Shown here: positions 11,219 to 64,000 of the stretch, in pieces
How positions within the stretch are numbered: the first letter of the stretch is position 1
How the letters are laid out: each line of letters begins with the position of its first letter
DNA from: Anthoceros angustus
Taxonomy: Eukaryota > Plantae > Anthocerotophyta
NCBI GenBank assembly: GCA_010909165.1
Contig: MU008158.1
Location: forward strand, 62,001-126,000
Reading direction: 5' to 3'
DNA: 64,000 nt
Translations under genes and position numbers: made by a program
Notes under the pieces: generated by a model
What the model saw: the letters and a program-made list of their open reading frames with translations, nothing else
What the model was told of the DNA's origin: nothing
Database searches by the model: none

Positions 11219-11262
<44 letters not shown>

Positions 11263-19990: not shown

Positions 19991-22743
19991 TAGATTCCGG
20001 TGCATTGCATACCGCGATGGAGAGAATTGGCAAGGATTGCGGTGGCGCTCGCAAGCCTCGGAAGTTGAAGGCGAAAGGGAGATTGAGAGAGAAGGGTAAG
20101 GCAGATGTACACGCCACCCTCCCCGCAGGGACCGAACCGGCCCCGGGTGATGCGAAGGGAAAGAGGAAAGTGGAGGAGCAATCGCCTGTGGCGGCGACGG
20201 CATCCGGAGCGCTCGACGGAGTGCCAGCAGTCCAAGCCGCATTTCCTCCATGGGAAGAAGAGGCGAACCGCATTCCGGAGCTACAATTTCTCTGAGGCCA
20301 TCAGTACTACTTGGCCGTTCACGGCGTACCGTTCGGGTCGTCGTAGTATGGGGTCCGTTCCCAAGAGAATAGTTTTTCCCCGTCGCTTGCGAATGCTCTC
20401 TCGCTGTTTTACTTCCACGATCGTGAACCCCACACTTTCACTACTACGCCCGCATTACTTTCGGACAACCACTCTTCCAAAGACTTCACGACTACTCTAA
20501 CGGGGTCCGCCCGTTGCCAACAATGTATTTGAACGTTTATCAGGACTCGTCCTTGTCCTGTCCCTTCGTACCCCTCAGTTGTCACCTTCTTCTCGCCTCT
20601 TACCTATATCTAACTCCCACATCCGGGAGTACCTGTGCGGTTGCGTGTAGAGGGGGTCCAGCCTCCCGTGGTTGCGTCCATCACCACACCCGCCACGCGC
20701 CTTCACCATCGGGCCGGGTTAATTAGCAGTACTCCGGTCCGCTGGGAGTCGGAATTTCACTCTGAACGAACAAGAATCCCGAGCTCTCTTCACCTGCACC
20801 CACCACCACACGTTAGAGGTTCGCCACCAGAACCCAGATCAACCTCCTCGGAGTAGTCCGCCCGCTAGGTGGCTCGGGTCTCGCGTGCTAGTAATGCTCA
20901 AAGGTCAAAACATAGGATGCGGCATCAACTCCCAAAGAAAGATCACTTTACTGGATGGCAGCCCTCCCCCTTATACTCCTCCGGAGGAGGTGCCCTTGTT
21001 ACACCCTAAATCCGGTTTACCGCCAGCTCACAACACATGCGCAAGTGGCCGCGGTTCCCGGTGTGACCCCACCTACAACCCTACCTACGCCTCCGACGAT
21101 GCGGCTGAAGTTGATTGTGATCAACTTCGGCCGTTGTTGGACCAATCCCCAGCCCTGGCGCTTGGGGTGCACCCAATCGGATGATTCTCGTCCCCCTTAA
21201 TCCCGCGGGGCCCCCTCTCCGGCGCCTGGGTTTGTCAGGTTGCGCCACTGGGGGTGGACTGACAACCGCGGTGACCACCAAGTCATCATCCCCGCTGTCC
21301 TCTGGCGCTCTGGACGACGCTTGGTGTGGAACGCAAAAGTTTGGGCAACCAGTCCAAAAGAGCCAGAAGGCAAACAAGTTCTTTGGCTAAAAATGATTGA
21401 AGAGGAGCATGTCAAGAAATTTTCTGAGAACCTTGAAGCTGAAGTTGTAGGATATTGTTAGGAAGTTGAAGAAGATATCCCAGGACAAAGAACGGGTCAA
21501 AACGACCTCAGCGGCGTAATGGCAACCAAAGGGCGGTAGGTCGACTATCATCGAGGTCGCCACACTACGCCGGGAGAGCGTAAAGGTGGTGCGACTACCG
21601 CGTAGGGGGCGGGATCTCGCCGGGAAAAGCAATGAATATAGGGGATATCCACTATATATGCTCATCAATAGGGAATAAATATATAGGTTAATTAGGGTAG
21701 CGGCTAGAATAGAAAAATAGGCGCTTTAGATAGGATTAGGATTTTGTAAATGATGAACCAAATCTAGGGTTGTGCACCTCCGTGTGGCATCCAAAGAAGG
21801 CAAAGTGTAGTTTGGGCGCCAACTTCCTCTTCGAATGAGGCCCCTCACTACGAAAAGACCGAGACCTGGAGCCGGAGCGTAAGGGAAGCGCGAGAAAGAG
21901 CAGCGGTAGTGCATTACCGCGGTAGGTGGCGGGATCTCGGCCAGGAAAAGCAATGAATATAGGGGGATATCCACTATATATGCTCATCAATAGGGGAATA
22001 AATATATAGGTTAATTAGGGGTAGCGGCTAGAATAGAAAAGATAGGCAGTTTAGATAGGATTAGGATTTTGTAAATGATGAACCAAATCTAGGGTTGTGC
22101 AGCCTCCAGGTGGCAGTCATCCAAAGAAGGCAAAGTGCAGTTTGGGGCAGCGCCAACTTCCTCTTCGAGCTGAGGCGTCCTCACTTCACGAAAGACTGAG
22201 ACTGGAGCTGGAGCGTAAGGGAAGCGCGAGAAAGAGAAGAAAAGGAAGCTGCCATTGCCGTCGTCGCTGCGACTTGTGAGCAAGAGGAGGGCGGCGCGCG
22301 AACGAGAGGAAACCCTAGGCGAAGGAGAGAGGAGGCAGACTCGAGCGCTCCAGAACACCAACGGGTGTTTCGGACCCGGTGAAACTGTGAAGGAGCGCGA
22401 GTGCTGGAATTTGTCAAGGGCGGGAGCCACGAAGTCGAGGAGCCTAGCGCGGTGTGAGATTGAAGAGATTGAAGACGCGAGGTGGAGCAAATTGTGAACG
22501 GAGAAAAGAGGAAACGCGCTCACCTGCCGGCGGCGCCTTGCCCTGGGAGGAGAAATCGCGAGGGGGAAATTAGCAGCAGCTAGAAGGCTCAAGCCAGGGC
22601 TAACGTGTACTTGTGCCTCAGGTTGGGTATTGCTGCTAGTGACAAGGAAGGGGAGTGTTTGGGAGTAAAGCTTTGGAGCCCACAGCGCCTGGAATTGGAG
22701 AGTAATTCTCTTCGTTAGAAGCGTTGGAAGTGAGAAAGGTGCC

Positions 22744-24024
22744 ATGCCACGCGCTGGGAAGAGCAAGGGGAAGGAGCCACTTGCCAAAGGTTCCTCCTCG
22801 AGAGGAGGAAAGGGCCAAAAGCCAACAGCAGGCGCTACGCCGCCAGGAGGAGGCGAGCTTATAATGCCCCAATTCACTTGTTTTGCAGGGCAGCTTAACC
22901 CCCGCGATTTGGTTGATTTTCGGCAATGGGCAGAGGAGGATAACATCCAATTGGGATGGGTGTATGGCCGCCAATGGGCCTACACCAATTTAGAGTTGAT
23001 TGAGGAGTGCTTCATCAATCTCCATCAATCAGAGGCAGCCCTTGCCGCGTTACCGGAAAGGAATGCTCGAACGGATCCTCGCTGCTGGACCGTAAGGAGC
23101 ATTCGACAGGTGTATGGGAGACCGGAGGAGGAAAGCTCAGGAATTGCTCTCCTCGAAAGGTCGAATGGAGGAAAGAGGACGGCCCTCTCCGAAATTCCGC
23201 AAGAGCTCCTCGACATGATGGACGGAGGAGTGAAGGCCCATGCCAAGAATGGCTGGAAAACAGAGAGCATCAAGGAGCTGAAGTGGAGGCTCTTTGCGAA
23301 GATTGTGCTGGGGTTGGTGAATTACCAAAGGACTTCTTATTTCAGCACCAACTTCCTCCAGTTTTTGTGGAAGATTTCCATGGAGCCAAAGGATTGGGGA
23401 ACAATTATGTATGAAGCATACATCCACCGGGAGAAGCTCCTCGTATTCGTGGATGAAGAAGGGCCCAGGCCTTGCTACCTTAGCACCTATTTGGTGCATT
23501 TGTGGGAAACGGAGGGACTCCTCACAAGCAAGGAGTTGGAAGATGCTTGGCATCCTTCGGAGATAATCCATCTCCAGCCAAGCTTGGAAAGGCCCTTGCC
23601 TTTTGCATTGAGGAAGACAGTGGGAGGTCAGACCTCCACAAGCATGCTAGGAGCAAGGGCGGAGGATGTAGAGGCAACAAGGTTGCCGGAGTGGGAATCT
23701 TTTCCCCCACAAGAGCAAGGAGGAGGAGAGGAACAGGAACCGGCCGAGGAAGGCCGAATGGTAGTCTATGAGAGGAGGACTACCACAGGAGGGGTGACAG
23801 CCCCAAGGGTGGGGGGAGTCCCCACCATCTCGCCTAGCAGAGGCACCCTGCAGCCTCACTCCCTAGGGGAGGCACCACCCTGTGAGGGTGCATCACTGGG
23901 GAGTCACCACCACCAGGGTAGGCGCACAGGGGGGGAGCCTCACCGCGGTAGGCAAGCACCCCACGGTAGGGAAAGCAGCCACGGTGTAGGGAAGGGAAAG
24001 AGCGTGGCCATGGGCGGCGCCTAG
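22744..24024 (+). CDS. E3 protein, N-terminal conserved domain (resembles extra-ORF proteins of plant Ty3/gypsy elements); coiled-coil continuation at 29719-30419 and after 44714
   Basis: 426-aa ORF with WAYTNLELIEEC, WTVRSIRQVYG, KNGW, KDWG and CYLSTYLVHLW motifs shared with the ORFs of E1, E2 and E4. Family assignment is by eye. Confidence 0.65.
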   Translation: MPRAGKSKGKEPLAKGSSSRGGKGQKPTAGATPPGGGELIMPQFTCFAGQLNPRDLVDFRQWAEEDNIQLGWVYGRQWAYTNLELIEECFINLHQSEAALAALPERNARTDPRCWTVRSIRQVYGRPEEESSGIALLERSNGGKRTALSEIPQELLDMMDGGVKAHAKNGWKTESIKELKWRLFAKIVLGLVNYQRTSYFSTNFLQFLWKISMEPKDWGTIMYEAYIHREKLLVFVDEEGPRPCYLSTYLVHLWETEGLLTSKELEDAWHPSEIIHLQPSLERPLPFALRKTVGGQTSTSMLGARAEDVEATRLPEWESFPPQEQGGGEEQEPAEEGRMVVYERRTTTGGVTAPRVGGVPTISPSRGTLQPHSLGEAPPCEGASLGSHHHQGRRTGGEPHRGRQAPHGRESSHGVGKGKSVAMGGA

Positions 24025-24354
24025 GCCACCACTACCCGCGCTTGGAGGAAGGGCGGATGGGGCGACCGTGAGGGGACCTCAAGCGTGATGGCCGCGAATG
24101 CAAGGGAGCTGAGATTTCAAAGACCAACAAAGGCAATTTGGGCCCTTAGGAGACTTGCTGAGTGCTTGTGAAGCACTCAGCCATGTGGATTTGAAGGGGG
24201 CTAGGGAGCTAGCAGCCTCCTTGTGGGCATGTCAGGAGGAAGTCAAAGCCCAAGAAATGACGGAGAGAGAGCAGGACTAAATGGCAATTGGAGGCCATGG
24301 AGTCCGATGAGAAGGCAACAAGCCGAGAAGGCATGGAAAAACTCCAGCGATCAG

Positions 24355-27300
24355 AACGATCTGGACTCAAACCCCTATTGGGATGTGCCTTGAAGTGTTT
24401 TTTGTTTTTTTTGGTCAAGTGTGGTGAAAATAAGTCGTTGATGAGGCAAGGGTATTTATAAAAGAAACGCCCTTGGCCTATGGTTTTCTTTCCTTGTTTT
24501 TATTTCTTAGGTTAGATAATAAGGGGTCCGGAACTCGATGTTCCTTGGCCCATGGACTTGGGATGTCCACTAAAAGGTCTATATATGTGAGGTAGGGGTT
24601 GGTATAATTAGGGAGTGATAGGTCTATAGGCTTGGAGTCAACCGATTGAGCTGAATGAGTGTGGGGTTGTGGATTGGGGTGTGGAGCGAGCGGTCGCAGA
24701 GGTCGAACAGGGGTAGGGGAACCCGGGGAACTTAACCCTGTGGAGTAAATCTAAGTCCGCTCGGCGGAGCGGCTACTGGAGCGCGAAGTTGAGGAGTTGC
24801 ATCCGGGAGACACCGCGATCTGCAGGAGGGCGCCAGGCGCACCCACGAGGGGAAGGAGCTCCGAACCCCATCCGCGACATCGCGAGTCGCGATGCTAGAG
24901 GAGGAAGGCGCCACGGCGCTTGGCCGAGGAGGTAGGAACTCGAGACCGACTCTGAAATTCGCGAATCACCGACGTGAGGCAAGACCGGGAGACTACTGTG
25001 GAGGGATGGCGCCAAGGTAATGAGATTGTGCTTGCCCAATGGCCAAACATGGATCATTGGAAAGTTCGAAATGGGAATTGGTGAAGGAGTCAAGCTTTCA
25101 TGGAAGAACGGTGGAATTACATGAACTTGGGACGGGTGAGTGTGCGCCACCAAGAAGGACAAACAAGGGGGGAATTAGAGCGAAGCCGCAGGATTGGGAC
25201 TGGAATTGGTTAGAGGGTGTATGGGCGCAGAAGGAGGAGGCGGTTTGGTGATGGAGCTGCCCCGAAAAGGAGAAGCAAGAGCAGTACCGCCCCCGGTTAA
25301 GGCGGGCGAGAGGTAGGAACTCGAGACCGACTCGCTGTAAGTAACCGCACACCGAGGCGCAAGACCGGGAGACTACTGTGGAGGGATGGCGCCCAAGGTC
25401 GCAGCTGAGATTGTGCTTGCTCCATGGCCAAACATGGATCATTGGAAAGTTCGAGCTGGGGAATTGGTGAAGGAGCTGAAGCTTGGCTTCATGGAAGAAC
25501 GGTGGAATTACATGAACTTGGGACTGGTGCAGGAGTGTGCGCGCCACCTGAAGGACAAACAGCCGGGCGGGGGAATTAGAGCGAAGCCGCAGGATTGGGA
25601 CCTGGAATTGGTTAGGAGGGTGTATGGGCGCAGTAAGGAGGAGGCAGGCGGTTTGGTGATGGAGCCGTCCCGGAAAAGGAGCACAGCAGCAGCAGCAGCC
25701 GCCCTGGTTAAGGCGGGCGTAATTCGGGAACCCAACGTCGACGGGATTTGGCAATTAGCTTGATGGGTCCGCCGATGGTCTATGTTTCGCAGACAAGAAG
25801 TGATTATTTGTCCGACCACTTGCCGCTCTCCATGAAGTGGTCAAGGGGCGAAAATCGACAGACTCTCGGTTGTGTGAAGAGAGGTTGAACTGATTTCTCC
25901 TACCCTCGGCCCTCTCTAATTTCACCATTTGGTCCATCTTTATGTGCATGCTAACCGCCCGCCAGAGGTGGAATTGTGGCCTCCTCCACATGTGGAAGCC
26001 GCTTAGGAGGTGAAATGGAAGGCGGAGGAGCCCAAGGAGGAAATCGAGGAAAACCTGATAGGGAGTCCGTATGACAGCCTGAGGAAGAGAAGGAAATTTC
26101 TACCAAAGAAAAGAGGAAGACCGGGTGGAAGACGGCCTCAAATAAAAAGGTGAAGGCGACGCTGGCACCAGTGTGTCAAAAACGGCCAAGGCCATGAAAA
26201 TGAAGGCCAAACGCAGATTGAGGTGGCGTAAGAGGAGGCGCGATCCGAGGAGGACAATTTTGCCGACTGGATGCAGATGATGAATCAACCCGAGGGTTTA
26301 GGGCCGACTCGTGGCGGACCCTCCTCAAAGATGGGAAGAGATTTTCAAGGGACTCCACCGGCAATGAGGTGGATGCAACCGAATTGGTGAGGGTGCGCAC
26401 CTTGCCGGGAGGAAAGTTCTCGATGAGGGATGGCGTCGGCGGGGCCGCCACAAGTGGATTTGCAGGAGCCGACCACATCGATGATCCGCCCGGATTTGTT
26501 GGATCAAGCTTTTAGCCTCACCGCCTGGGCAAGGGGCGACGGAGGCGCAGACCGGGAGACTCTTGTGGAGGGATGGCGCCCAAGGTCGCACTGAGATTGT
26601 GCTTGCCCAATGGCCAAACATGGATCATTGGAAAGTTCGATTGGGAATTGGTGAAGGAGTCAAGCTTGGCTTCATGGAAGAACGGTGGAATTACATGAAC
26701 TTGGGACGGTAGGAGTGTGCGCCACCAAGGACAAACAACAAGGGGAATTAGAGCGAAGCCGCAGGATTGGGACCGGAATTGGTTAGAGGGTGTATGGGCA
26801 GAAGGAGGAGGAGGCGGTTTGGTGATGGAGTAGTCGAAAAGGAGCACAAAAGAAGAAGCAGCCGCCTGGTTAAGGCGCCGAACCCAAATCTACGTCGACG
26901 CGGGATTTGGCAATGAGCTTGATGGGTCCAGATGGTTTCTCCTATGTTTCGCAGACAAGAAGCAGATTATTTGTCGACCACTTGCTTGCCTCCATGAAGT
27001 GGTCAAGGGGCGAAAATCGATTGGGACGAATTCTCTCGACAAGTTGTGTGAAGAGAGGTTGAACTGATTTCTCCTACCCTCGGCCCTCTCTAATTTCACC
27101 ATTTTTGGTCCATCTTTATGTGCATGCTAACCGCCCGGAGGTGGAATTGTGGCCTCCTCACATGTGGAAGCCTTAGGGAGGTGAAATGGAAGGCGGAGGA
27201 GCCCAAGGAGGAAATCGAGGAAAAATCGGATAGGCGGGAGTCGGTGGCGGCAGGCGGATTCGGAGGAAGGAAATTTCTACCAAAGAAAAGAGGAAGACCG

Positions 27301-29713
27301 GGGTGAAGGCGGGCCTCGTGAAAAGGTGAAGGCGGATGCGCGTCACGGGTCAGCAGGCGCGCTGAAAATGAAGGCCAAGCGGAGGTGGCGTAAGAGGAGG
27401 CGCGATCCGAGGAGGACAATTTTCTTGACACGGATGCAGATGATGAATCAACCCCGAGGGTTTAGGGCGACCTGGACCCTCCTCAAAGATGGGAAGAGAT
27501 TTTCAAGGGGACTCCACTGGCAACAGAGGTGGATGCAACCGAATTGGTGAGGGTGCGCACCTTGCTGGGAAGGAAAGTTCTCGACAGAGGGATGGCGTCT
27601 GGCGCGGGGCCGCCACAACAGGTGGATTTGCAGGAGCTGACCACATCGATGATCCGGGCCCAAGCGGATTTGTTGGATCAAGCGGCTTTAGCTCTCACCT
27701 GGCTCAGTGTGCAAGGGCGACGGGAGGAAGTGGTGAAGGCCAGGTTTGACGAAGAGGAGGCCAAGCGCAAGCAACTGGAGGAAGACAAGCCCCCTAGAGG
27801 AAATAAGGGCCAAGATTCAAGAAGATTTGTGCAGGCCTGTGAGAAGTTGCAAGCCATGACGAGCCACAGGAAGCGCCATGGCTCAAATTAAGGATGCCCA
27901 CGAGACGAACCAGAGATGCGTGGGGAGTTGTTGCGAGCCCAGAGCGTGGAGGCGCCCGGAAGGCCCATAAGTCGCGAGGATAAACGGAGCGGATGAGGCA
28001 CGTGGTCGAGCCGTAAAGGACAAAGGGAAGGGAAGCGAGGTAGCAGACCACGTGGTAGTGGAAGGAACTAACGAAGGAAGCAAAGAACCGAGGTAGCCAA
28101 ACACCTACCGTGGTTGTCGAACAGCGACGGTCAGGAGTCCACATCAGAGGAAGCCGCCACCGACATTGGCGCGCCAACTCGGCATGAGCGGAGCAACAGG
28201 ACGCGACGCGGCACCCCGCAAGGACATGGACCAGGCAACTAGGTGTAGCCTACGGGAGGAGGGGGTAAGCACCTCAGCTACAGCAGGAGGTCCCATTATG
28301 TTGCGGCACATGGATGAGGAAACTTATGTTCCTGGTCTATATGTGAATGGGGAACGCGTGCTTAACTTCACTGTCCATGTGCGTGTGGAAATAGGAGGGA
28401 CTGTGGCCTACCCATCGCAAGTGAGGACTCAAGTGCATACTTCTACCATTGCGCCCGAGTGTGGGGTTGGCCCCTATTATGCGGAGGCGACTTTGGAGGA
28501 GTTAAGGAGGAGGAGGTCCAGCTTGGGTGGACGAGGAACCGTAATAATCCTCAAGGGCGGCAAGCGGAAGACGCGAAGCTCAGGTGGTACACCTCAAATT
28601 AGGACGCCCAAAGCAGATGAGTGAGGTGGAAGTATTGTGAAAACCTCGCTGACAGCGGCAGAGAGCTCGTGGCGGCGCATGGAGGACGGCGGCCAAGTCG
28701 AGGGAGGGCGCAGCGTGAGTGGATAGGTGATAGCATCCTAAGGATAGATTTGGTTAGGATGTCGCTAGACCTAGGAACGCCCGACCAGGGCGCCCCTTCG
28801 ATAGCCATCTTAGGACCTAAAATCCGGGCATGGCGCCCACCGGTATAAGAGGGGCGGATTATGCCTCACAGATAATTTCGTTGAGATCCCCACGCCCGTG
28901 GCTGGTTGGAGACGTCCAATTAACGGAGGCGTAGACGCCCTAGGAATGGTCGAGAGCTTGCTGCTACCGGAGGAGGAAGGCGATGGGCGCCTTGGCCGAA
29001 AGGGAAGGAACCAAGGGATTGGCGCGGGTCCGAGCTTGCTCGTAACGCCGGACGCTGGCTCTTCTCCCTTCGCTTTCCTCGCCGTTGTGTTCTGAATTGA
29101 GGGTCTGTGTGGAGTGAGTGGATGCCTCAAGGGCTAATAGAGAGAGGGAGTGAGAGAGAGGGAGGAGAGGTTAGCATCAGATGCTGCGAGGTGCTGAATC
29201 GTGAGTGGGAAGGAAGAGAAAAATGCATGGAGAGGTCATGGTCGAAATTGTTGTGTAAGGATCGCGAATTGAGCCGGTGCGGTCTGAAGGAAGTGCGCAC
29301 GGGGAACGTTGTTTCCTGGAGGAAATAAGGTGGTGTGGCGCCCTGGTGTGTGTGTGCATGTGTGTGGATTGAAGGTAGAGGCCTAGGAATCCCCACGAAT
29401 CGGGCATAGTGTCCGGGGTAGAATATCACCGGACTACGGTGGAGACAACCTGCATCCGCGCCAATCCCGCTAGGGTTTGGTGGGACCCACTCGTCGCCCA
29501 CTACCGGTAGTGGTGCGACTACCGGTGGTAGAACGGGAGACAGGTTGGGGAGTTAGATCCGTGGTAGTTGGACAAGACGGAGGTAGTAGTAGTTGAGTAG
29601 ATAGGAGTGATAGCAAAGACCGACTTAGCTAGGCAAAGGTCGGTAGTGATAGAAGATAGCGTCTCTTGGCACAAAACATTCCCTTGGGAGCGAATCCCAG
29701 GACTACAACGACA
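24355..29713 (+). mobile_element. Element E4: pol-less single-ORF unit, LTR-like 3' region ~28700-29713
   Basis: Ends CTTGGGAGCGAATCCCAGGACTACAACGACA, homologous to the E2 and E1 ends. Starts AACGATCTGGACTC..CCCC..poly-T like E1/E2. Junction repeat ATCAG (24350-24354) / ATGAG (29714-29718), one mismatch. GTATAAGAGGGG at 28843-28854. Left boundary is less certain. Confidence 0.6.
25386..28624 (+). pseudogene. E4 protein (paralogue of the E3 ORF), frameshifted and internally duplicated (24925-25310, 25310-26530, 26540-27710)
   Basis: WNYMNLGLVQECARHL...RAKPQDWDLELVRRVYGRSKEEAGGLVM aligns with E3 WAYTNLELIEECFINL...RTDPRCWTVRSIRQVYGRPEEESSGIAL. KIDW (~27015) and LVHLY (~27105) follow. Confidence 0.7.
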
Positions 29714-31687
29714 ATGAGGGTGAATGTGGACCTCACCGTGTCTCAGGACACGAGATTCCACCCCACAGCGACCTTGTGGATCAACGGCGCGCGGAGAAAG
29801 TCCTGGAAGGGAAGTTATCGCAGACCGAGGAGAGAGCCATTCGGGCAACAACCCAACGGGATTCGTGGAGGCAAAAGGCAGAAGAGCATTTTGCCCACCT
29901 CGAGCAGGAGAGGAAGAGCAAGGCTGAGGCTCTAGGAAGAGAGAAGCAAGCGACTCAGCAAGTGAACGCACAAGAGCAGGTGATGGCTACCCAAGCCATC
30001 AAAATCCGGGATATGACGGAAGAATTGACACGGGTGATACCGAGGAGAAGCGCTCGGAGCTGGAGGCTCAAGACCTACGACTACAAGAGTTGGAGCGCGA
30101 AAAGGATGCTTGGCAGGAGGAGAAGGAAAGGCTTGCCAAGCAAATGGCCGAGTTGGAACAAAAGAGGTTCCAAGAGGAGGAGCACCACAAGAAGGTGGTG
30201 CACAGGATGCTGGTAGTGAGGAAGCGAAGGTTTTGGGCAGATTATGCCCTTCAGGCGAAATTGGCCAGCCAGCTGAAGGAAGCAAGGGAGGAGAATGTAA
30301 CCCTCCATGTGAAGGTGGGAGAATTGACAACCGCGAGAGACGCCTACAAGGGTAGGTGTGAGGATGGAGAGTGGCCCACGGAGATTGATGATCTCCAAAT
30401 GCAATATCATAGTGTGGACTACGGACTTCCCTTGGGGGTTAAGAAATAAGTAGGGTTTTGTTTTTTTCGTAGGAGCGGAGGATAAAATAAGGCGGGAAAG
30501 GAGGAATAAGCATGGATAGCACTCCCATCTGCACTGGTATACTCCGGACTCGGAGTGGGCAACGCATTCCCGACCTACTATGGCGGTGCACCGGACTACG
30601 CCTGGTGGATAAGTCACCCACTCGAGTCCAAGCGTGATAAGTACGCCAGTGAAAGTAACTTAGAAGTTGAGCCGTGAGGATGACTAGGCGGCGCCACGTG
30701 GACGGCCCCGAGTGGAGGTCGGGGCGTACCGCCAGACCGAGTTTGCTGGGGCCGCAGGCAGTATTCACGCCCGCGGACGCGGGCGGCGGCGCCGTAGTAC
30801 GCGGCGTGGCCGTAGTAAGGAGGCGGGTCGGCCATGCACTCGCGCTACGGACAAGGAAGGCGCCTTCCAGCCAGTAGTTACTCCCAAAGGCGGCGTCAAG
30901 GGGAAGGTCATTACCGCGGCAGCCTCGAGACAATTCTCGCAGCTCTTGCGCCCGCAACTGCCTCTCGCTATCTCTTTGAGCGCCAAGCACCTTCGAGCGT
31001 GGTTCATCCTGGGTTGGAGCATAACGCGAGGAGGGCGCATCGCGCAACCCGGCCAGCCACTGAACAAGGGAGCAAGGCGATGGCACCCAAAAGCTGGCGA
31101 GTTTGGGAGCCATGGAACCTCGTGAGAGCAACATTGTGACCCGCGCTATCCGGACTTTGGGCCCCGGCCGGGAGGAAGCGGAGAATTAGGAGGAGTGGCA
31201 CTCGGATGTGTTCCGACGGTCCGGACGCTCGATGCCACTCCGTCCGGAGTTCGCCGGAAGATGCTGGCGGCGGTCAACAAGGAGGTTCGTCCAAGAACCT
31301 CGGAGGACCCGAGGCGATGACCTTGAGGTCCCGAGGCGCCTACAACCGCCCAAAGGAGGAAGAAGGGGTGTGGTGCCGAGCCCCTCAAGGCGAAGGGGAA
31401 GATAGGCCGCAGCATGGCGAGGCTCGAACGCAGAGGACCACCAACGGCCGGTTGATATCCGACCCGCCGAAATGGTAAGGGCGGTAGCCCGGATCATTGT
31501 CCATTGCCTCGCCACCAAGGTGGATCACCTTGGTGATAACTGTTGGTATTCTCGCATGCGCTAGCCGGGGAAGAGGGTGGATCGAAGGATTATTCGCCTC
31601 TCAGAGGCCCAGAAGCTCGGGAGCGAAGCCCTCGCCATTGGGCTGTCCCACATACCGATCCATGTATGGGGACATTTCGAGCTCAAG

Positions 31688-41177: not shown

Positions 41178-41405
41178 TAAAGGAATACATGTGCTAGTTA
41201 TTGATTAGGGTTTGGGTTATTTAGTCAAGTTAAGCTCTTAGCATTATATATGTCTTTTCATTAGGGTTACGTCGTTTGGATAAGACATGTTGATTCATAA
41301 GTCTCTTTAGTTGTCTTTTCATATAACACATAAGTTTTATGTATGTTCTTGACACAATGTAATTATTATATGTTTAATTGATCTGTATCTGCCTAAATTA
41401 CGTTA
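41178..41405 (+). repeat. 3' LTR of Copia-3
   Basis: Direct repeat of 31688-31915, preceded by a purine tract. Confidence 0.93.
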
Positions 41406-44400
41406 TGAAGGAGGGAGAGCTTGAGCGGGCGCTCCGGAAAGGACTGGAGGCCCTGCCGGAAGTGGAGCGTGAAAGGGCGCCCGAGGTGGGGGGCCGACCC
41501 TCGAAGGCCAAACGGACCCGGGAGGAGACGATCGAGGGAATTCCTGATACGTCTGAACGGACCCCTCACCACCCAGGAAGTATGGGAGGAAATCCTGCCT
41601 CCTCCCCGGTGCCCCAGAGCCAAGGCAGCAGGAGGCTAACTCCAATAGCCCGCCCACCACCACAACCATGGAGCCCGACCCGAGGGAACCAAGAGACGCA
41701 AGATTGCCTACCAACGCAAAGCCCGACGGTGCCAAGATTCTTACCTGCCACCTGAGTGGCAAGAAGCTGAGGAAGCGGGAGGCAGAAGGGACGCCGCCCA
41801 GTGAGCAGGAGGTCACCGGCAGCAGCCAGACCTCGAGCCGGCCCTGCCTCCGATGTGAAGAGGCAAAAGGGCTTGCTCCCGACCCCTCACCTCCGAGCCC
41901 TGTGAGAAAAGGGCGGAGAAGGAGCTCGCGCCAAAAGGGCCAAGGAGGGTGAAGCCCGAGTCAAAGACTGTGACCTAAGGGTCCCGATTAGGTCCGGAGA
42001 ACCCACTTTCCTGATCAAGTATGGAGGTCTCTCATGATCAAGGAAATGCCGGCTCCCACTACGGACTTTGTGGGAGCTCACTGCGGGCCGTGGAAGAAAC
42101 ACGGCGGGAGTCCGCTTGCCATGGATTTGAGGTTTTGGGGTCTCATGGGATGGCCGAGAAGACCTGTGGAGAAGCCACCCGAGGCGATGGTACCTCCGTG
42201 AGAGGCTGGAGGGGCCCAGGAGGAGGAAGGCCAAGCTCTCGGCCGAATTGAGGAAGGGAAACGCCGGAGGCGAGAGGGAAGTCCGTCCATCTGCAAGGAC
42301 TGACTAAATTCCTTCACCGGAGGAGCAGCTGGTGCTAAGGAGGCCTGCTGGCCGAGGACCTCAGCAGGAGAGGGGTAGCGCACAGAGGCGGAAGAGGCCC
42401 GGGCGAAGCGAGGCTCGGGACCGCGGAGGCTGACCAGACCAGAGCCAAGCTCGAGAAGCCTGTGAAGGTGGCCAAGGAGGCGGAAGACGGCGACCGCGAT
42501 CACTATCGGCGTGATCGAACCGTGGAGGGAGGCTACTGCAGCCACGGCCAATCAAGGCCGAGCAGCAAGAAGAGAGCAAGCACGACGAGCCGCGTGCAAA
42601 CATGAGGCCAAGACCGGAAATCGGGACCCTGTGGCGCACTGCAGGAGGTAGAAGGGAGGCGGCAGGAGTCGGAGGATGAAGGACACCTTGGAGTTACAAC
42701 CCAAGACGCTGGCCGAGCAAGCAAGGGGTTCTCAACGAGAGAATCCAAGACTTCGAGTGAGATAGAGCGCCCAGCCTCAAGATGGAGCAGGAGGCGGCGG
42801 AGCGCGACCAGCCAGCCTGTGAAGCTCGCGACAAGGAGATGGAGGATCTCCTGACTCACCTGAGGTGGAGCAGCCGGGCAGGAGATGGAAGACCGCAAGG
42901 AGACCTTGAGTCAGCCTTCAAACTACCATTGAGAGGAATGGTAGTCTAGACATGAACGCGAACGGAAATAGAGCGCCACCGCTGGACGAGGCGACGGGCG
43001 ATGGAACAGGAGCAGGACGCCGAGATGGAGAAGGGCTGGCGAAGCTGCAGAGCTGCGACCGTCTGGAGAGGGCGAGTTAATGTCCTTTAATGGACGGAGA
43101 AGAGAGCACCGGAAGCGCATAAGAAGCCGCTGGTCCAGGAGGAAGGAACGCGTTATGGCCGGTAAGCCGGCAGCCGGAGCGAAGCGACGGAGTTGGAGCA
43201 GTGGAGCAATGCGCATGGAGGTGACCGAGGCAGCACCAAGGTGAAGCAGCCGGCCCCACCTATCAAACCCGGTGGGAGGTGGTCCAACAAGCCGGGCAAA
43301 GACGCCTCCCCGAGCACCTATGGCGAAGGGAGTATCGGTGCCCGCACACGTGGAAGAGGCAACCAACAAGTGGATTCGACTTTGCCTATTACCACCGAGC
43401 CCTCAAGAGGCCTCTCCCAACAAAATAGACGGACCGGAAGGCCTGAGGGGAAGAAGGGCATGGGGACAGCACAGGGACTCTAGTGGCCCTGTTTGGAGAC
43501 GACGGCAGCGGGGGAGAAGAGCCTCAAGAGGAGCGAGACGCAACGGACCCCAGGGTAAGTTCACCGCAACCCGCTCAGGAGAAGGGAGGTGACGGCCCTG
43601 AAAGGGGCGCAGAAGGAGGGAGCCAACCCGACCCAAGACAAGGGTCGGGGGGTAGGGATGAGGACCTAGCAAGACGAGGTCCATGAAGGGGTCCGAGCTT
43701 GGGGACCGGACTTAATAAGTTCTGACCCCGAGGTCCGAACCCCAGAGACGAGGCCGACCCACCGACCTGACTCAGAAATAAGACGGACTCGGAGTTCGAC
43801 CGAGTCGAGACCGACCTCGAGGTCCGACCGCAAGAAGGAGGAGCCCCTTCGACTTACGCTTAGGGGAGCAGAGGCGGCCCCACCGAGGGGACCCACGGGA
43901 GGCCAGTGGAGGATGACGGTGGTAACGGCGGCCGCCGACCGCCAGAGCCCAACCCGACTGTGATTCCGGAGAGGAGGGGTCCCGCCACGGATCATCCGAT
44001 TGGGTGCCGAATCGCCGTGACGGGAGATTGGACCACCAATCCCAAGGCAACCCGGACCTTCCCACCACCACCGACGAAGGAGATAGGGGAGGAAATAGGA
44101 TGGTAGGCGGCCGATTAGGTATACCGAGCTGCCATCACCGTAATAGGTGTAATAAAGACGCCGACCGGGCGTAGTATAAGAGGGCCGGGCCGCCTCAATA
44201 AATCATCTTTCTTGGTGTTGATGCCGCTCTGCACTTGTGTGTCTTCGCTAACGTGAGTCACCGAAAGGTGCACGATACCCGGAGATTGATCGTGGTCCCG
44301 TGACGGACCTAACGTGTTGTGGTGTGTGTGTGAAGGGTGACTGGGATCCGCTCGCCCGCAGCCGCGCCGCCGAACGGACCGAACGTGTGAGCCGGAGGGA

Positions 44401-46678
44401 CGGAGCAGAGCCTTGGACGAGAGGCCCAACGACGGGAGGAGGTCCGGACTGTAGCCCGCTGGCCTTCCCTAAGACCATAAGTGTAGTGAGTGGAGAGAGA
44501 GGAACGGACTAGATGTGAGTGACGAACGTGAACGATACGGACGCCGGGTCCTTAAACGCTTGGCCACCGGCCTGCAAGGCGTGAACGCTAGTAGTTAGAC
44601 GCGAACGATGAATGTGCGTTGAGACCGAACGACGCAGTAAGACGAGAATCGCTCAACGCCGCAAACGGAGCTCGCTATTCCTTGGGAACGGACTCTTCCT
44701 ACAACGACACGGATTGTCGCGCCGGGTTGTCTGAAAGTCGCGCCACACATAGCTTGGGCGCCATCTTCATAATCGGATATTGAAGGCCAACAACGGCTTG
44801 CGATCGCCAAGAGGGAGGACATTGGGTCCTCATGATGATGAAAGGAGCTGCAGCAGTGCACTGAGGCCTCCGATTTTGATGAGGCCATAAGCCATGGACT
44901 CAAGGGTCCAAGAATCGGAGGAGCGAGAGAGGGTCAGCGCAAAGGTGGAAGATGGCAGAGAGCAAGGAGGGGGACAGCCCACCTGTGGGGGTCACCCACT
45001 GGTGACCACACCACGGTAGTCCGCCATCACCGGTAGACAACCACCACGCCGTAGTCCGCCACTACCACGGTAGGTGCAAGCGCGGGCTGGGAGCCGCCGC
45101 GAGGCCGGCCGAGGGAAGGAGCCGGGGCCCAGTATACCCCCGCAGGAGGAAGAGGAGGTGGAGACAACCCCACCGAGGAGACTAAGGACGGGTCCGCAGG
45201 TCGAGAGGGGAGGGTAGGAAATTCCACCCCTGATAAGGGAGGAGCCAGGCCGGGGAAGAGTCGGATGCAAAAGGGCCCAAGAAGTTAGACATCCCATCAT
45301 TGGGGAGAAAGACTGTGAGAAATGCTCCAAGCAAGGTATGGACAAATCAAACAGAGGAAGGAGCAAGGAGATCCACCCAAGAGACATCACCGATGAGAAG
45401 AAGAGAAGAAGGAGAAGGATCGACTACCATGGTAGGTCCACCCCTAGTCCGCTGCATCACCGCGGTAGGCCGAACGGGCGCCACCAGCGGAGGCGGAGAA
45501 AGGGCGCCGAGCGCGGAGCGATTGCCGGGAGACAGAATCGCCGCCGCGGAGATGGAGGAAGGGGCAAGATTGTACTTGCCCCACACATTGGGAAGATGAC
45601 AAGGACTGGGAAGGGGCAAGAGCAAAAGGAGGGCGAGGGAGCCAATCCAAGAACGCGTCACCACCCAAATAGGTGAAGACTAGATATGGTCAATGACCAT
45701 AAATGAGCTTTGGAGAATGTGAAGGATAGGTGGTGTACGACATCCTTAAGGATGATTAGGTGAAGTTACTAGAATAGAATTTACCAAGGATCGACAAATA
45801 GACTTAGGTGCCAGCCTTAAATGTTGTAGGAAATAATAGAATATTGGAAAAGGTGACCCAGAGGGTCACCTAAGGGAGGTTGTATGGAAGGCCTCCTATA
45901 AGAGGAGGAGGATTTCACAAAGTATCATGTCTTGCGCTTCCATACTCCGAGTCCTTTGCCCTTGTAAAGGAATTTCGCGGCCGTGAGCCAACATTCGTAG
46001 AGAGGAAGTCTGGTGGCCTGAGTGTTGGTGGAGGACTTGCTCGCAAGTGCCTAAACGAGTTGCTCCCCTTGTGAATGGTTGCTGTGAAATTGCTTTGCTT
46101 TGGGTGTGTGGCAATGCCTAGGGAACTTTCGGCTTGAGGGTAGACTACAGGGAAAGACTCCCTGGAGGTTCTCGCTGTTTGGTGTCAAACTCATAGCAAC
46201 CGGCCCAAGGAAGAACTTGCTGGTGGAGGCCGACCCTGTGCAACAGGGCGAGGGCTAGTCAAGCCAAGAAGCCCGAACTGAGGTTAGAATAGGAGGAAGA
46301 GGATGAGGAGATGAGTAGAGGAATAGAGTGTAGGCGTTAGTGGAAGGCCGGCAGCCTAAGGGACGAATCCCAACTGCAAGTAAAAGAGTGCTCCCCGAGT
46401 GGAGAAGAGTGGTCTTAGAAGTAGGGACAAATTGCGTGTGGATCGTGGGGTCCTCGGGCGCCGTGATAGGCTCCTCGCTAAGGCGAGCCCGTAATTGTTG
46501 TGTCGCTGTAGGTCGAGGATTGGTAGTTTTTCGAGCAAGCGGGCAGCCTGTAAGAGGGTGAGTAGAGGGCGCTTGCTCGCAAGGTCGAGAAGTGTGTCTG
46601 CAGTAGGATCGACATCACGTAACCTCGAACTTTCACACAAGTCTCATGGGACGAAACCCAACGACGGGCGACAGTGGA

Positions 46679-49600
46679 TAAGTGTGGCCGCTAGAGGGGA
46701 GGATCTCAAGCCCCGGATTTTCCTACACACTTGGTCCCCTGCTCGCCCACCGGCCTCCTCCCGGTCCGCCGAGCTTGGCCGCCTGCACTATCCTCCACAA
46801 CTGTGGGCTGGAGGTATCCGTCGTGGCTTCCTCCGGACCTCGGACCAATAGGTCCATCCCTGGCTCCGGACCTCGGACCAACAGTCCGCCCCTTGCCCGG
46901 CTGGAAATAGGTCCGCCTTCCTCCCGGCTGGACCAATAGGTCCGCCCCTTGCTCCGAGCTCGGACCAATAGGTCCGCCTCTCCGGCTCTAATAGGTCCGT
47001 CCCTTGCTCCGGAGATCGGACCAATAGGTCCACTCTCTCCTCCGGAGCTCGGACCAATAGGTCCGCCGCCTCTTCCACTACCCGGGCTCTTAAGTCCGGG
47101 ACCTCCAAGGACCCTATCCCTTCCGCCTGGTACCTGCCCGGACACCGCCATTACTCCTCCCCGAGGTCCGGTGTAGAGAGCCTACCTTCTCGCCCTACTC
47201 CGCTGCTGCCTCCTCCCTTCCTTGGTGCCTCCGCCGCCTCCTCTCCAACAAGGCATGGGACCGCCACGCGCCCGACCTCCTCTTCCCGGCTCTCACTCTC
47301 CAGCCGTCCGCCTCCATCACTGGGTGAACCACACCGCCTCGAGCCCAGATGGTAATATGCGGAGTCGGAGTCCACTTGCTGGATGGCTTCCTCCACATGA
47401 GTCCGCAGCATTCCCGCCCAAAGGTTTTCCCAAGAATCGCGGTCGGGTTGCCCATCGCCCATCTCCACTCCGAAGTTCTTCCACCGAGATCCGGCGCATC
47501 CCGGGAGGCTGAAGGAGACCCCGCACAACTCGGAGCCGACGTCATTGGACACCCTCTCCTCTCTTGTTCTTCCGCTGGAGGCCAACCGCCTGGGCCGAGC
47601 TGCCCGGGTCTCCACCTTCAGAATTAGGTGAGCAACTTGTGCCTCGCTCGCCAATGCCGCTGCTTAGTTACCTTTTGGTTGAGAACGGCCATCTCCTCCT
47701 CCAGCCGCCCCGGGAGCGTCACAAGGCGCTGGACCTCGGCTAGCTCTCTGTCGAGCTCAACGATGTTCGCCTCCTCGCTGCCGACGGTCCTCCGCCTCGT
47801 GCATGCCTCGAGACGTTTCTAGCTCAAGGCCTCGACCGCCTGTGGTCCTCAAGTAGACCGTAGCGCCGGTTCTTTCCAGAGCCGGAGCCCGTGATCTCCT
47901 CCCGCCTTCTTCCTCTTGGCGCTACCGGCCCATCCTTTGGAGGTGCTCTTGGAGGCCTTCCCACTCCCTCACCTTCCCTCGCATCTCGCCTCCGGCGCCA
48001 CGCGAGCTTGCTCCGCACCGCTTCCTTTAGGGCGCCTGTAGCTACCTCACCGCCTTCTCCACCGATTCCGTCCCGCTTGTAATGGTCCCGATCGGTTTTG
48101 CAGTGATTTCGGCCTCCTGGCCACCTTCACTGCCTCCGCCTCGCCTTGCTCCTCCTGTGCCTCACCGCCTCGCCTCGTCCGCTTCTCGGCTGGCTCTTCG
48201 CTTGCCGCCTCGAGCCGCTCGCTGCTCGTGATAATTGCGTAACCTTGCTTGCCTTGCCGAAGTGACCTCGCCGCCGCCCGCCATCCGCCGCCTTCCTCAA
48301 TCCGGCGAGGGACTCCGCCTCCTCCGGCCGCCATGCCTCCGCTGGCCCCTCGAGCTCCACCATCCTCCGCCGAGTGGCCTCCACCTCCGAAGCCTTCTCT
48401 GGAGATTCCCCATAGCATGCCGGGCCCATGACGGGTAGCCACTACTGCCGTCTCCTCCACGGCGCCTCACGATACGCCCAGTATCCGTCGGGCCTTCTTG
48501 GGCATCTCCCGATCCGCTAAGCCAGATTGGAGTAGCTCCGGATTAGGGGCTCGGACCCAATCAGACTCCCAAGTCCCGTCTGGTCCTGAGTAGGTCCTTC
48601 CACCTCCTTGGCCTCTTCGCGGCCCTTCTTTCTCCGCCTCCTCCTCTCGGGTCCGCGGTGGTGAGGGGGTCTCGAGCCGGCCTCTTCTCTCCGTAGGGAG
48701 AGGACCGCCCGGGTGCGTCAGCTGACCTCCGGGCGCCTTGGCCGCCTTCCCGCACGGCCCACTAGCCCATCGCCTCGCACCGCGGCGGTAACCCGGCGTA
48801 GGCACCGCCACCGGAGCGTTGGAGTTCCGGGCGCCTGCTTATTCCCCGGTCGCCTTGTCCGCCGAGGCTCGGCGAGTGGGACCTCCACAGTTTGAAAGCT
48901 CTCCCGAGCCGGCACTACCCAACCCGGCCGGTGTGAGGTGGTGCTGGGTGTGGCAAATGGAGGAGGGAAGCGGAATTGTTTCCCGATTGGGGGAAGGGTC
49001 CGTCTGTGCGGATAGAGTCCGTGATGCCTTCCCGCCCTCCTCCTCTGCGTCTGCAGGCTTTTTGCCGGGCCGACTTCTCGTGGCCGCCTCCCATGCTCCG
49101 CCTGTGAAGGGTGACCCGCCCCCACCGGAGAGCTCGCCTCCTTCTCCTTCCTTAGGAGGTCAAGGTGTCTCCGCATACATGCACGATGAATGGAGATAGG
49201 CCCGAGGGCGGAGGCCGTTCACTACGCACTTCACCCCTCGCTGACAAGGGCTGGCGTAGATGATCCGCCTGCCCGCCTTGCCCTCATGAGAGCATGCGAA
49301 AACACTAGAAGATTATCACCCAAGTGATCAACCTTCGTGAGCATGTTCCATGGACAATTATCTTGGCCATCGCTTCTCACCCGCCGGTCCAGAGGTCCGA
49401 CATCACCAAATTTATTTGAAGACCTCGAGACCGGTTCACTGGGGCAGCCTGGCCGCTTCCTTTAGGGCGCCTGTAGCTACTCCACCGCTTCTCCACCGAT
49501 TCTTGTCCCGCTCGGTAATGGTCCCGATCGGTTTTGCAGTGATTTCGGCCTCCTTGGCCACCTTCACTGCCTCCACCTCGCCTTGCTCCTCCAGTGCCTA

Positions 49601-51300
49601 CCGCCTGCCTCGTCCGCTTCCGCTGGCTCTTCGCCGCCTCCCGAGCTGTGCCAGCCTGCTGTCAGACAATTGCGTAACCCTTGTCGTCTTGCCGAAGTGA
49701 CCTCGCCGCCGCCCGCCATCCGCCGCTTCTTCCTCAATCCGGCGAGGGACTCCGCCTTCCTCCGGCGTCGCCATGCCTCCGCTGGCCTCGAGCTCCACCA
49801 TCCTCCGCCGAAAGTGGCTCCACCTCCGAAGTTTTCCGCTGCCCCACAGAGACCCCATAGCATGCCGTCCATGACGGCAGCCACTACTCGCCGTGTCTCC
49901 TCCACGGCGCCCGCCGGCGATACGCCCAGGTATCCGGCTGGGCCTTCGGGCATCTCCCGATCCGCTAAGGACCGCCAGATTGCACTCCGGAGTAGCTCCG
50001 GATTAGGGGCTCCGGACCCAATCAGGACTCCCAAGTCCTGTCCGTCCGGAGTAGGTCCTTCCACCTCCTTGGCCCTCTTCGCGGCCAATTCTTTCTCCGC
50101 CTCCTCCTTCGGTCCGCTGGTGGTGAGGGGGTCCCCGAGCCGGGCTCTTCCTCTCCGTAGGAGAGGACCGGCCCGGGTGCGTTGCTGACCTCTCGGCGCC
50201 TTGGCCGCCTCTCCGCACGCCCACTCAGCCCACTGCCTCGCCACGGCGGGCAGTAACGGCGAGGCACCGCCACGGAGCGTTGGAGTTCCGGGCGCCTGCT
50301 TATTCCCCGGTCGCCTTGTCCGCCGAGGCTCGGCGAGTGGGACCTCCACAGTTTAACGCCTCCGGGTCCCCAGCCCAACCCGGCCTGGTAGCCCGTGAGG
50401 TTGCTGGGTGGTAAGGAGGAGGAAGCGGAATTGTTTCCTTTCGGGGGAAGGGTCCGTCTGTGCGGATAGAGTCCGGATGCCTTCCCGCCCTCCTCCTCTG
50501 CCCAGGCTTTTTGCCGGGCCGACTCGTGTCCAAGTGGCCGCCTCCCTGCTCCGCCTGTGAAGGGTGACCCGCCCCCACCGGAGAGCTCGCTCCTCTTCTC
50601 CTTCCTTTAGGAGGTCAAGGTGTCTCCAGACATGCACGATGAATGGAGATAGGCCCGAGGGCGGAGGCCGTTCACTACGCACTTCAAGCGCCTCGAAGGC
50701 AAGTGGCGTAGATGATCCGCCTGCCCGCCTTGCCCTCATGAGAGCATGCGAAAACACTAGAAGATTATCACCCAAGTGATCAACCTTCGTGAGCATGTTC
50801 CAGTGGACAATTATCTTGGCCACTGCTCTCACCCGCCGGTCCAGGAGGTCCGACATCACCATTTATTTGAAGACCTCGAGACCGGGTCTCATCGGCTCCG
50901 CTTCCACCTTGCCCCGCACCTTGAGGGGTTCTCGCACGCCCCATTTTCGCCACGGGCGGCAGACCGCCTGAAGGACTCCATACCATCGCCGGTCCTCCTC
51001 GTTCTTAGAGCAGACATTTTGCTCAAGCAAGCATCTTCCTCGCATACTCCCATACATGTACGCCATAGGTCCGTGTGGCTGAAAACGCCGAGGTGCCACT
51101 CCCTCAGATCGACGGCCCTCCAGCCATGGACCAAAGTCCGTGTACCGCAGGACGATGTTGCGCCCACCCAGGCTACGGTTCCCATTGCTCCATCGCCTTG
51201 GGACCCATGGAGGCACGCCGCTCACTGCTGAGGAGGGTCGGATTGGTTGTTCGCCCAGGCGCCCCGAGCTCGCGAGCGACGCGGCCGGGTCAATGGTAGA
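46679..51300 (-). pseudogene. E1 protein (paralogue of the E2/E3/E4 ORF), frameshifted; ~1.4 kb internal duplication (48015-49435 / 49450-50885); C-terminus continues at 21325-21080
   Basis: ORFs 50889..51185, 50353..50862 (LSPFIVHVWRHLDLL), 49564..50349 and 47151..47654 (HVEEAIQQVDS). Confidence 0.7.
46842..47066 (-). repeat. ~8 tandem ~30-bp units with palindromic core GGACC-AATA-GGTCC, encoding GPIGP repeats in the E1 protein
   Basis: Directly visible; ORF 46723..47151 reads GGPIGPSSGGESGPIGPISGARDGPI. Confidence 0.85.
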
Positions 51301-52949
51301 CCGCCCGCGCCGAGTTCAAGAGGAGACGCCAGAGCGTGGATGACGGAAAGCGCGAGACCGAGAACTGCCGAGTAGTCTCTGAAGATAGTCCGCGTGCCGG
51401 GTGTGTGGAGCGATTCGCTGCGCTGGAAGACGCCCGCCACCAATACACCCAGCCGCCCCATCGTAGTATCGCACTCACGCCCGCCGCCTTCTGGCGCCGC
51501 CCTTGGGTCGGGTTACCGCCAATAAGGCCGACACTCCGCGCCCCGCCGGTCCGTCATCCACTCAAGACGCCCCCGTGTCCCACTTGCCAACTACGCCTCA
51601 CGCTCACCCCATGGTTATTCCACCGTCGGACTTACCTTAGTCCGCTCCCAAATTACTCCGGCGTTAAGTCCGAGGTACCTGACGTTGTCCGACTCCCCTT
51701 CCTCCGTTCCCCTCTGATCCGCTCCTTTCTGGTCCGTTCGGCCTTATTTGCCCTTCCTTCGCCTTATTCTTCACACGCAAACACTAAAAAAACAAAAAAA
51801 ACTCCTACTTCCTTCCTAAGGGGGGGAGTCTACCGTTCTTCCCTTGTCCACAGCCACGATCCAAGGAGGATGTTCTGCAGAAATTGAGTCGCCTGTTTCT
51901 GGATAGAACAAACTGCCGATGTGGGGGCTTCACCTCCGAAGCGCGGCCACTGTGGCTCAAGCTACACACTTCACATGAATGGAATTGGGATGCGTTGACG
52001 AGACAAAGATGGAACGACTGCGGCATGGGTTCAAGTGCCCTTTCACGTGAATGGCGACGCAACATGGGAGCTGTAGACTTTGAGACAATGAGCTCAACAC
52101 TATTCCTGTCAGACGGCGGAAATGAAGGAGGTTGTTTACACCAAGGGGAAGGCGCCTCCCGAACGCTTTGTTCTCGCTTGCAAGCTTAGGACGATCAAGG
52201 CCGTTGTCGAACTTTATGGATTGTGTGTAATCAACTTTAAATCAAAACACGCATCCCCAAATGCAATGATCGACGCTGTGTCAACCATCTCGACCGCTGG
52301 TGCCGACCACTGCTAGCCAAGACATCCTCCCTTTCCATTGCAGTGTCACCCCTACACTACGCCCAATCTCCGCCGGAAGAGTCGCTACCACGCTGACATA
52401 ACCCGGCAGTTTCCACCGCCGCTTAGCGCATGCATCGCCAACATTGCGCGGTATGGCGTGCTCGCCAACCGTGCTCGTCGCCTACCGAGTTGGGATTGGA
52501 AGAGGTGGCTCCTCGGTCGCAAAATTCGCTGTTTCATGTCCGAGGCGAGGTTCTTGTCAGATGTCGCCGTGATGCGCATCGCTCGGCGAGCCGCTTCTCG
52601 ATCGTTTGGCCGACTTACCCCGAGGGTCATCACGACGGCGGATCTCCATAAGCGTGACGCTTGCCTGGCCCATGGTTTCGCAAGCACGCCCAGTCCTACG
52701 TGTCGTGTTTATGGGTCATGAAGTCATGATTGCACACCGTGGGACGGGCTCGGATAACGGATGTACCACCTTTGCGGCTGTGGTTGCCGTGCCTACCGAT
52801 CACGACGGGAGGATGCCACGAAATGCGATGCGGTGTACATGTATTGTCCTCGCCGCCGCTGTGTCGCGAGCTCGCAGCTCGTATTCAAGACATTTCAAGA
52901 ATTCACTCACCGCGCCACCGCCTGTGCCCGTGGTGGAGTTCTCGCATCA

Positions 52950-55950: not shown

Positions 55951-55999
55951 CATGAAAATTGCTCCACAGCCGAGGTTGTGGTCGAAAATGTTGTGATTA

Positions 56000-63930: not shown

Positions 63931-64000
63931 TGTCATGGCACACAGTGGTAGGAAGAGGTAGATAAGAATCTGAGTGTGATGGTGTGTGTGTGCTATGTGT

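Follow-up and report, generated by a model that had tools for sequence, protein, structure and literature searches.

Four nested single-repeat units in Anthoceros angustus: probable giant solo long terminal repeats of Athila/Tat-type elements with an accessory gene in U3

Introduction

Among the described retrotransposon systems, the plant Ty3/gypsy elements with an extra open reading frame (ORF), and the Athila clade in particular, come closest to the locus reported here. This locus is a nest of four related units, E1 to E4, in a stretch of 64,000 nucleotides (nt) of Anthoceros angustus (Anthocerotophyta; assembly GCA_010909165.1, contig MU008158.1, positions 62,001 to 126,000 of the forward strand), and the whole stretch is called the window below. 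It consists of plant-like repeat DNA in a noisy assembly. In the literature, which is cited here by PMC number and for the parts of each paper that were covered, extra ORFs are classed as 5' or 3' in the element (PMC6317226) and have been placed between the long terminal repeat (LTR) and gag or between pol and the LTR (PMC3485330, PMC11963269). The extra ORF of Athila elements is internal (PMC6317226, PMC7264820, PMC11728184). The Pfam family PF20167 is present on an Athila 3' extra ORF (PMC11728184), PF03078 occurs in 16% of Athila elements (PMC6317226), the subgenomic RNA for Athila ORF2 is spliced (PMC7197481), and the Athila domain and VANC have both been modelled as coiled-coil pentamers (PMC13547354).

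Long LTRs have been described as well. Non-chromovirus LTRs of up to ~5 kb are known (PMC6317226), and the plant elements Ogre (>5 kb), BAGY-1 (4.2 kb), Retrosat2 (>3.2 kb) and Diaspora (2.5 kb) are, in the portions of the literature covered, alike in LTR length to the units described below. Retrosat2 is also alike in its frequent solo LTRs (PMC3485330). Ogre and Retrosat2 ORF0 differ from our units in that the extra ORF lies between the LTR and gag, and those portions describe no protein gene inside the LTR. The Retand/Tat elements with TRP28 (PF04195) resemble the units in having an accessory ORF with a small domain and a coiled coil, proposed to be nuclear (PMC11963269, PMC7264820). Their ORF is antisense and internal, whereas here it is sense to the TATA-like box and, on our reading, within the repeat; the Pfam scans of the unit ORFs gave no PF04195 match.

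Genes in or overlapping U3, the unique 3' region of the LTR, are found in vertebrate retroviruses. These genes (MMTV sag, HIV nef and the foamy virus bel region) depend on splicing or on an internal promoter for their expression from the 3' LTR, and their ORFs are much shorter. We know of no homology between them and the unit ORFs.

In the present study, we followed up an earlier note on this DNA, and we consider it quite probable that E1 to E4 are solo LTRs of non-chromovirus Ty3/gypsy families with an accessory ORF in U3. They likely represent three or four related families of Athila/Tat type, with LTRs as long as ~4-5.3 kb because the accessory protein gene lies in U3.

Results

The ends of the units were examined by scanning for TG...CA termini with 5-bp flanking repeats near all of the ends first placed. 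E2 (30413..44747, + strand, 4612 bp net) opens with TGTGG, closes with GCCACA and has the perfect 5-bp target site duplication (TSD) CATAG. E3 (21325..46729, +) opens with TGTGG, closes with TACACA and has the perfect 5-bp TSD CTTGG. Both are likely solo LTRs. In the box used for E2 to E4, a terminal inverted match of at least 4 together with a perfect TSD occurred in 34 of 5000 random position pairs, and a perfect TSD without the inverted-match condition in 522 of 5000. The TGTGG start is common to three of the four units (E1, E2 and E3). Furthermore, an empty site for E2 was found when contigs of sequencing run X1 were mapped onto 19500-39000. Three of these contigs leave the window after CATAG at 30412 and then match it from 44753 onward in 22 of 30 columns (aligned by eye). 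The loose end at 30412 rejoins at 44753, and therefore E2 is placed at 30413-44747 with CATAG as its TSD.

The two remaining units, which are also likely solo LTRs, have one clear end each. E1 (20293..51852, - strand) has a clear TGTGG 5' end at 51852. Its 3' end was put at 20293 (CCTCA), with 20187 and about 20302 as alternatives, because a 106-codon host frame stops there and the spacing of the subterminal motif fits the other units; the end reads CCTCA or CCACA depending on the placement. E4 (24351..29767, +) has an exact 3' end, CCCCACA, and a noisy 5' end. Its right flank after 29767 is GCGAC and its left side is GCGA followed by TCAGAAC, so that four of the five TSD bases agree and the left end is probably a damaged TG end. 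The net lengths, computed after subtracting the nested inserts and the duplicated stretches, were ~3.8 kb (E4), 4.6 kb (E2), ~4.7 kb (E1) and ~5.3 kb (E3), close to the ~4-5.5 kb estimated before; the ORF described below takes up most of this length.

The earlier note had proposed two readings: either each unit is a giant solo LTR whose U3 holds a protein gene and whose 5' end is not TG, or the units have asymmetric ends and move in trans. The ends found here speak against the non-TG 5' end of the first reading, and they make mobilisation in trans, with CGACA as the 3' terminus and no TG at the 5' end, barely credible. The CGACA motif (CGACC in E1) is not the terminus, since the true units reach 38-56 bp beyond it (38 nt in E2, 43 in E1, 54 in E4 and 56 in E3), and the 5' ends start a few bases earlier than first placed. 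They are not of a non-TG type, given that TGTGG opens three units and E4 is noisy at this point (TCAGAAC), and the ends of E2 and E3 are ordinary TG...CA ends with perfect TSDs. The short direct repeats that had been listed as junction duplications do exist, including a perfect 8-mer at E1, which favours mobilisation in trans. However, they are internal to the real ends and such repeats are expected by chance: among 5000 random 60x60 boxes, 4527 contained a perfect 5-mer and 228 a perfect 8-mer. In addition, the empty site conflicts with the E2 ends that this model needs. Restoration of the host reading frame on removal of E1 or E3, which had also been claimed, was not seen at those ends; the open codons before and after the join were 13/116, 82/16 and 61/22 for E1, and 4/14, 14/83 and 36/44 for E3. 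For E4 this test was undiscriminating (50/165 at the claimed and 47/149 at the corrected ends). Nor were E2 and E3 found to be truncated gypsy 3' halves, the counter-possibility raised with the two readings.

Other copies of E4 provided a further line of evidence. When 24 contigs were mapped to 29690-29800 of the E4 end, their cover extended to 29753, and family contigs thus match 40 nt beyond the E4 terminus required by mobilisation in trans. Summed contig depths were not taken as copy numbers. Two contigs reach CCACA in exact register with 29767. One of them (depth figure 180.8) continues from CCACA into TTT-TGGCGC and then stops, and the other (depth figure 10.4) passes into unrelated flank. 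By its sequence, TGGCGC resembles the start of a primer binding site (PBS) for a non-Met tRNA; with its 6 nt it excludes tRNA-iMet and names no tRNA, the Athila criterion being tRNA-Asp. Primers of non-chromoviruses are tRNA-Ala, Arg, Asp, Lys or Trp, never Met, in the parts of the survey covered (PMC6317226), so a non-Met PBS fits this group. The likeness to the Athila clade includes this TGGCGC start after a 3-nt spacer in the E4 family, the TG...CA ends and the 5-bp TSD; in Diaspora and Calypso, of the Athila lineage, the PBS starts 5 bp beyond the LTR (PMC1142308). No 5' unit end preceded by a polypurine tract (PPT) was present among the 6 of 332 loose ends listed for the X1 contigs. Overall, the ends and TSDs of E2 and E3, the E2 empty site and the PBS-like motif of E4 support the first of the two readings, the giant solo LTR.

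Two candidates were set aside in the course of this work. An internal CCGACA-TTGGCGCGCC at ~28160 was dismissed as a chance occurrence, TGGCGC being present 14 times on the + strand and 21 times on the - strand of 20000-52000. A reversed reading of the units (TGTCG start, antisense ORF and a PPT at the far end) was dropped after the true ends and the PBS-side contig had set the orientation.

All units share one order of parts, namely TG end, leader, sense ORF, TATAAG box, TGGGA...CGAC motif and CA end, which we infer to correspond to U3 (with the ORF), R and U5. The TATAAG boxes lie 570-920 nt from the 3' ends, and the presence of such a box in each unit, noted earlier, could be verified. They are at 28843..28851 (+) in E4, 924 nt from the 3' end and a predicted U3/R promoter; at 44174..44182 (+) in E2, 573 nt from the end; at 45896..45904 (+) in E3, 833 nt from the end; and at 20968..20976 (-) in E1, ~683 nt from the end. 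The subterminal motif, presumably in U5, reads TGGGA...CGACA at 44679..44709 (+) in E2 and has counterparts in E1, E3 and E4, with a DNA match between E1 and E4. In E2 a T-tract followed by AG (30456..30472, +), 40 nt before the ATG at 30512, is a candidate splice acceptor from its sequence. Similar T-tracts are present in E4 (24398-24419) and E1 (51801-51784, minus) and none in E3, and TATA-like tracts occur in the leaders of E3 (~21650-21690) and E4 (~24450-24590). Upstream of the TATA-like box of E1 there is a tandem array of ~8 copies of a 33-bp sequence (46827..47065, -), which one may speculate to be a binding site for the element's own protein.

As the earlier note had stated, none of the units has a second terminal repeat. 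Inside each unit, the best matches to its first and last 150 nt scored 26-36, below the shuffle maxima of 38-44, whereas the copia LTR control scored 282. A TSD-bounded TG...CA unit without an internal repeat is the product of LTR-LTR recombination (PMC7251063). Likewise, the reported lack of gag, reverse transcriptase, integrase and transposase was confirmed by domain scans, in which neither the unit ORFs of at least 100 amino acids (aa) nor the shorter fragments matched gag, protease, reverse transcriptase, RNase H, integrase or transposase. The scans covered 190 of the 206 ORFs of at least 100 aa, including all of those in the units (the 16 omitted lie upstream of 18000), plus 201 unit fragments of 50-99 aa. 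Copia elements gave clear domain matches in the same scans.

Two further explanations were considered. In one, the LTRs are short (~1-1.5 kb), and the units are what deletion or recombination has left of ordinary Athila/Tat elements, namely the internal 3' extra ORF and the 3' LTR. This agrees with the normal place of Athila-type extra ORFs, between pol and the 3' LTR (PMC11728184, PMC7264820), with the PBS contig, which probes only the last 50 bp of E4, and with the missing clean TSD at E1 and E4. We nevertheless regard it as quite improbable, since E2 and E3 open with TGTGG right after a perfect TSD and the E2 empty site joins at that point, the 5' leaders of E1, E2 and E4 are homologous, and no unit shows the internal copy of its 5' end that is expected of a short-LTR remnant bounded by two integrase ends.

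In the other, the units are non-autonomous single-unit movers with integrase-type TG...CA ends and no two-LTR stage, travelling as one-LTR circles or by a Ginger-like DNA route. All four units in the nest are indeed single, and the window shows no autonomous partner. Ginger-type DNA transposons are recognised by long terminal inverted repeats and an integrase-type transposase. In the units, the terminal inverted matches amount to 4-5 bp, no inverted repeat of at least 40 nt was found at the ends, no rve match was obtained, and no integrase or transposase is encoded. There is, moreover, the PBS-like motif behind an E4-family end, and a solo-to-full ratio above 2 is known for long-LTR families, as in Retrosat2 with 429 solos and 162 complete elements (PMC3485330). 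We therefore hold single-unit movement to be very improbable, and the solo-LTR reading is retained. Metagenome scans for related loci returned 80 pattern matches, none of them confirmed, and the E4 end motif had 0 exact matches there.

The claim of one long ORF per unit was borne out directly only in E3. E3 has 426 open codons from the ATG at 22744 (22744..24021, +), whereas in this assembly no sense frame is longer than 175 aa in E4, 145 aa in E2 or 262 aa in E1. The E3 ORF starts with a basic N-terminus, followed by a predicted globular domain of ~240 aa and a low-complexity linker, and its first 426 codons contain no transmembrane stretch (maximum 19-residue hydropathy 0.8). Its middle part (29768..30412, +) is rich in E, K, R and Q and likely forms a coiled coil; a weak TPR_MLP1_2 match (E 0.0017) covers 29928-30446. 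The frame likely continues, with shifts, to ~45400, giving an estimated ~950 codons.

The homology of the units was upheld, for E1, E3 and E4 at the level of the protein domain and for E2 through the DNA of E1. The first half of the E3 domain has a homologous piece in E4 at 25341..25760 (+; 33% over 69 aa, E 1e-10, z 19.7), and the second half has one in E1 at 50575..50862 (-; 28% over 87 aa, E 5e-5, z 6.9). This homology is confined to the sense strand, the antisense z values ranging from -1.0 to 0.8. The frameshifted E2 ORF region (31050..31687, +) is homologous to E1 in DNA, and E1 and E2 match by 62% over 605 nt (E 7.6e-25) and by 63% over 528 nt. A direct E3-E2 match was not significant (z 2.7). 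The periodicity of mismatches along codons was not significant in E1-E2 or E3-E4; the copia integrase used as positive control failed too (134 of 500 shuffles), and thus this test has no power.

In the Atlas look-up, the E3 domain scored 0.92 with both Transposase_32 (PF20167) and ATHILA (PF03078), with a recognition of 2533. These look-alikes, and an extra ORF in sense orientation that precedes the 3' promoter region, are further likenesses to the Athila clade, so that from its sequence the ORF protein is predicted to resemble an Athila accessory protein. The place of the ORF is different, for here it follows the TG end and precedes the TATA box, inside a unit with one TSD (E2 and E3), and not between pol and the PPT. 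A comparison of the E3 domain with the Protein Data Bank gave a single chance match (E 0.41). The AlphaFold models were of low confidence (pLDDT 35.6 and 45.6) and the fold searches remained without a match (E >0.8, best Z 4.7); these blanks say nothing for or against a VANC-like fold.

The nesting of the four units, as described earlier, was confirmed. E1, on the minus strand, encloses E3, E3 encloses E4 and E2, and E2 encloses a copia element; the outermost host is a CACTA-like element (11969..60730, +) with 44-bp terminal inverted repeats at 11969-12012 and 60687-60730. The CACTA-like host gave weak Transposase_21 and DUF4218 matches, its transposase being heavily frameshifted. It measures ~17 kb after removal of E1 and carries a field of 42-bp repeats in both orientations at ~15340-17900, and a low-complexity TG/GAG-rich tandem field lies directly outside its left end at 11100-11700. 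The copia element in E2 (31688..41405, +) is a full element, separate from the E1-E4 family, with two LTRs of ~230 bp, a tRNA-Met-type PBS and pol domains. Both of its LTR copies have non-canonical TA...TA termini (TAAAGG...CGTTA), and its TSD is near-perfect (TCAAG/TGAAG). More copia elements are found at 136-3700, 6589-7600 and 61400-64000. The best database relatives of the copia protein used as a control are plant polyproteins with only 24-31% identity, and hence the host lineage appears to be poorly sampled.

Tandem duplications of 0.3-1.6 kb with 84-90% identity occur in six unrelated stretches of the window (8005-10578, 21571-22239, 25351-27723, 33671-38304, 48018-50888 and 56749-59094). 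In all six, the indel events between the duplicate copies equal or exceed the substitutions (76 vs 44 in E4, 87 vs 44 in E1 and 47 vs 18 in the CACTA-like element), as against 2 vs 7 in a genuine copia LTR pair. Furthermore, X1 contigs bypass the E4 duplication, with joints from 26378 to 27562 and from 26435 to 27607. For these two reasons, the duplications and most of the frameshifts are likely an assembly stutter, which inflates element sizes in this genome.

Discussion

Several of our results weigh against the solo-LTR reading or limit it. Within the 64-kb window there is no full-length element with paired giant LTRs around gag-pol. Two of the four units miss the strict test of ends, since E1 has no recognisable TSD at its 20293 end and the 5' end of E4 has no TG. 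The PBS-like junction comes from one contig of one family, with 6 nt, in one run that is perhaps from the source sample, and this contig shows that the last 50 bp of E4 are an LTR end, not that the ORF lies within a paired repeat. The Pfam negatives are of limited power, as the frameshifted CACTA transposase itself only reached E 0.007-0.016. As for the protein, a non-domain control reached z 4.1, so that the direct E2 value (2.7) and that of a second E4 copy (4.3) fall within noise. The lead to the Athila family is one Atlas look-up with 167 shared features (the guide value being 170) in which 6 of the 10 best agree; a score of 0.9 is also attained by 4-10% of shuffled proteins, and the 96-aa E1 fragment scored only 0.84, with unrelated proteins. 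For the E3 domain, hmmscan gave no Pfam match up to E 10, neither to PF03078 nor to PF20167, phmmer gave 0 matches in 1.84 billion representative proteins, and the word-index searches found no homolog among 1759 and 1798 candidates.

If E1 to E4 are solo LTRs, the nest would have formed when full-length elements inserted into one another by means of integrase and then shrank to solos through recombination between their LTRs, a process that long LTRs would favour. U3 would have grown through an upstream shift of the PPT, the site of plus-strand priming, past an Athila-type 3' extra ORF. In the full element, the ORF copy of the 3' LTR would lie within the genomic RNA and would be read from a subgenomic RNA spliced onto the T-tract and AG that E1, E2 and E4 have close to their 5' ends; alternatively, the TATA-like tracts of the E3 and E4 leaders would serve as an upstream promoter for it.

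A soluble protein is predicted, with a globular domain and a coiled coil, and it would serve as a nuclear accessory factor with the chromatin or RNA of its own element as the target. Counter-silencing is the role that we would name first among those predicted for it, and this is put forward tentatively. A bolder proposal, which we regard as doubtful, is that this lineage moved an accessory gene of ~1,000 codons into U3, so that each solo LTR is a gene cassette with promoter, ORF and 3' signals, and that the solos, outnumbering the full elements, still supply a trans-acting counter-silencing protein, which possibly binds the tandem repeats of the LTR. If this were true, the formation of solo LTRs would spread the gene instead of disarming the element.

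Conclusion

Taken singly, solo LTRs, 5-kb LTRs and extra ORFs are nothing new. In the parts of the literature covered we found no report of an ORF inside a plant LTR, and PMC13468544 and PMC12885004 had nothing on ORFs in LTRs in their parts covered; supplements, including the per-element tables of PMC6317226, and subscription papers such as Steinbauerova 2011 were outside this scope and could hold a precedent. Plant extra ORFs have so far been described as internal, and solo LTRs have been regarded as non-coding leftovers. If the gene sits in U3, the recombination that deletes the element retains the gene. Since the three or four families are ~60% alike in DNA and 28-33% in protein, the layout appears to be old and not a one-off capture. 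The function of the Athila-type accessory protein is a long-open question (PMC7264820), for which the units would provide many natural copies to probe. In genome annotation, gene-carrying solo LTRs of this kind are likely to be taken for host genes or to be overlooked by LTR finders that limit the length.

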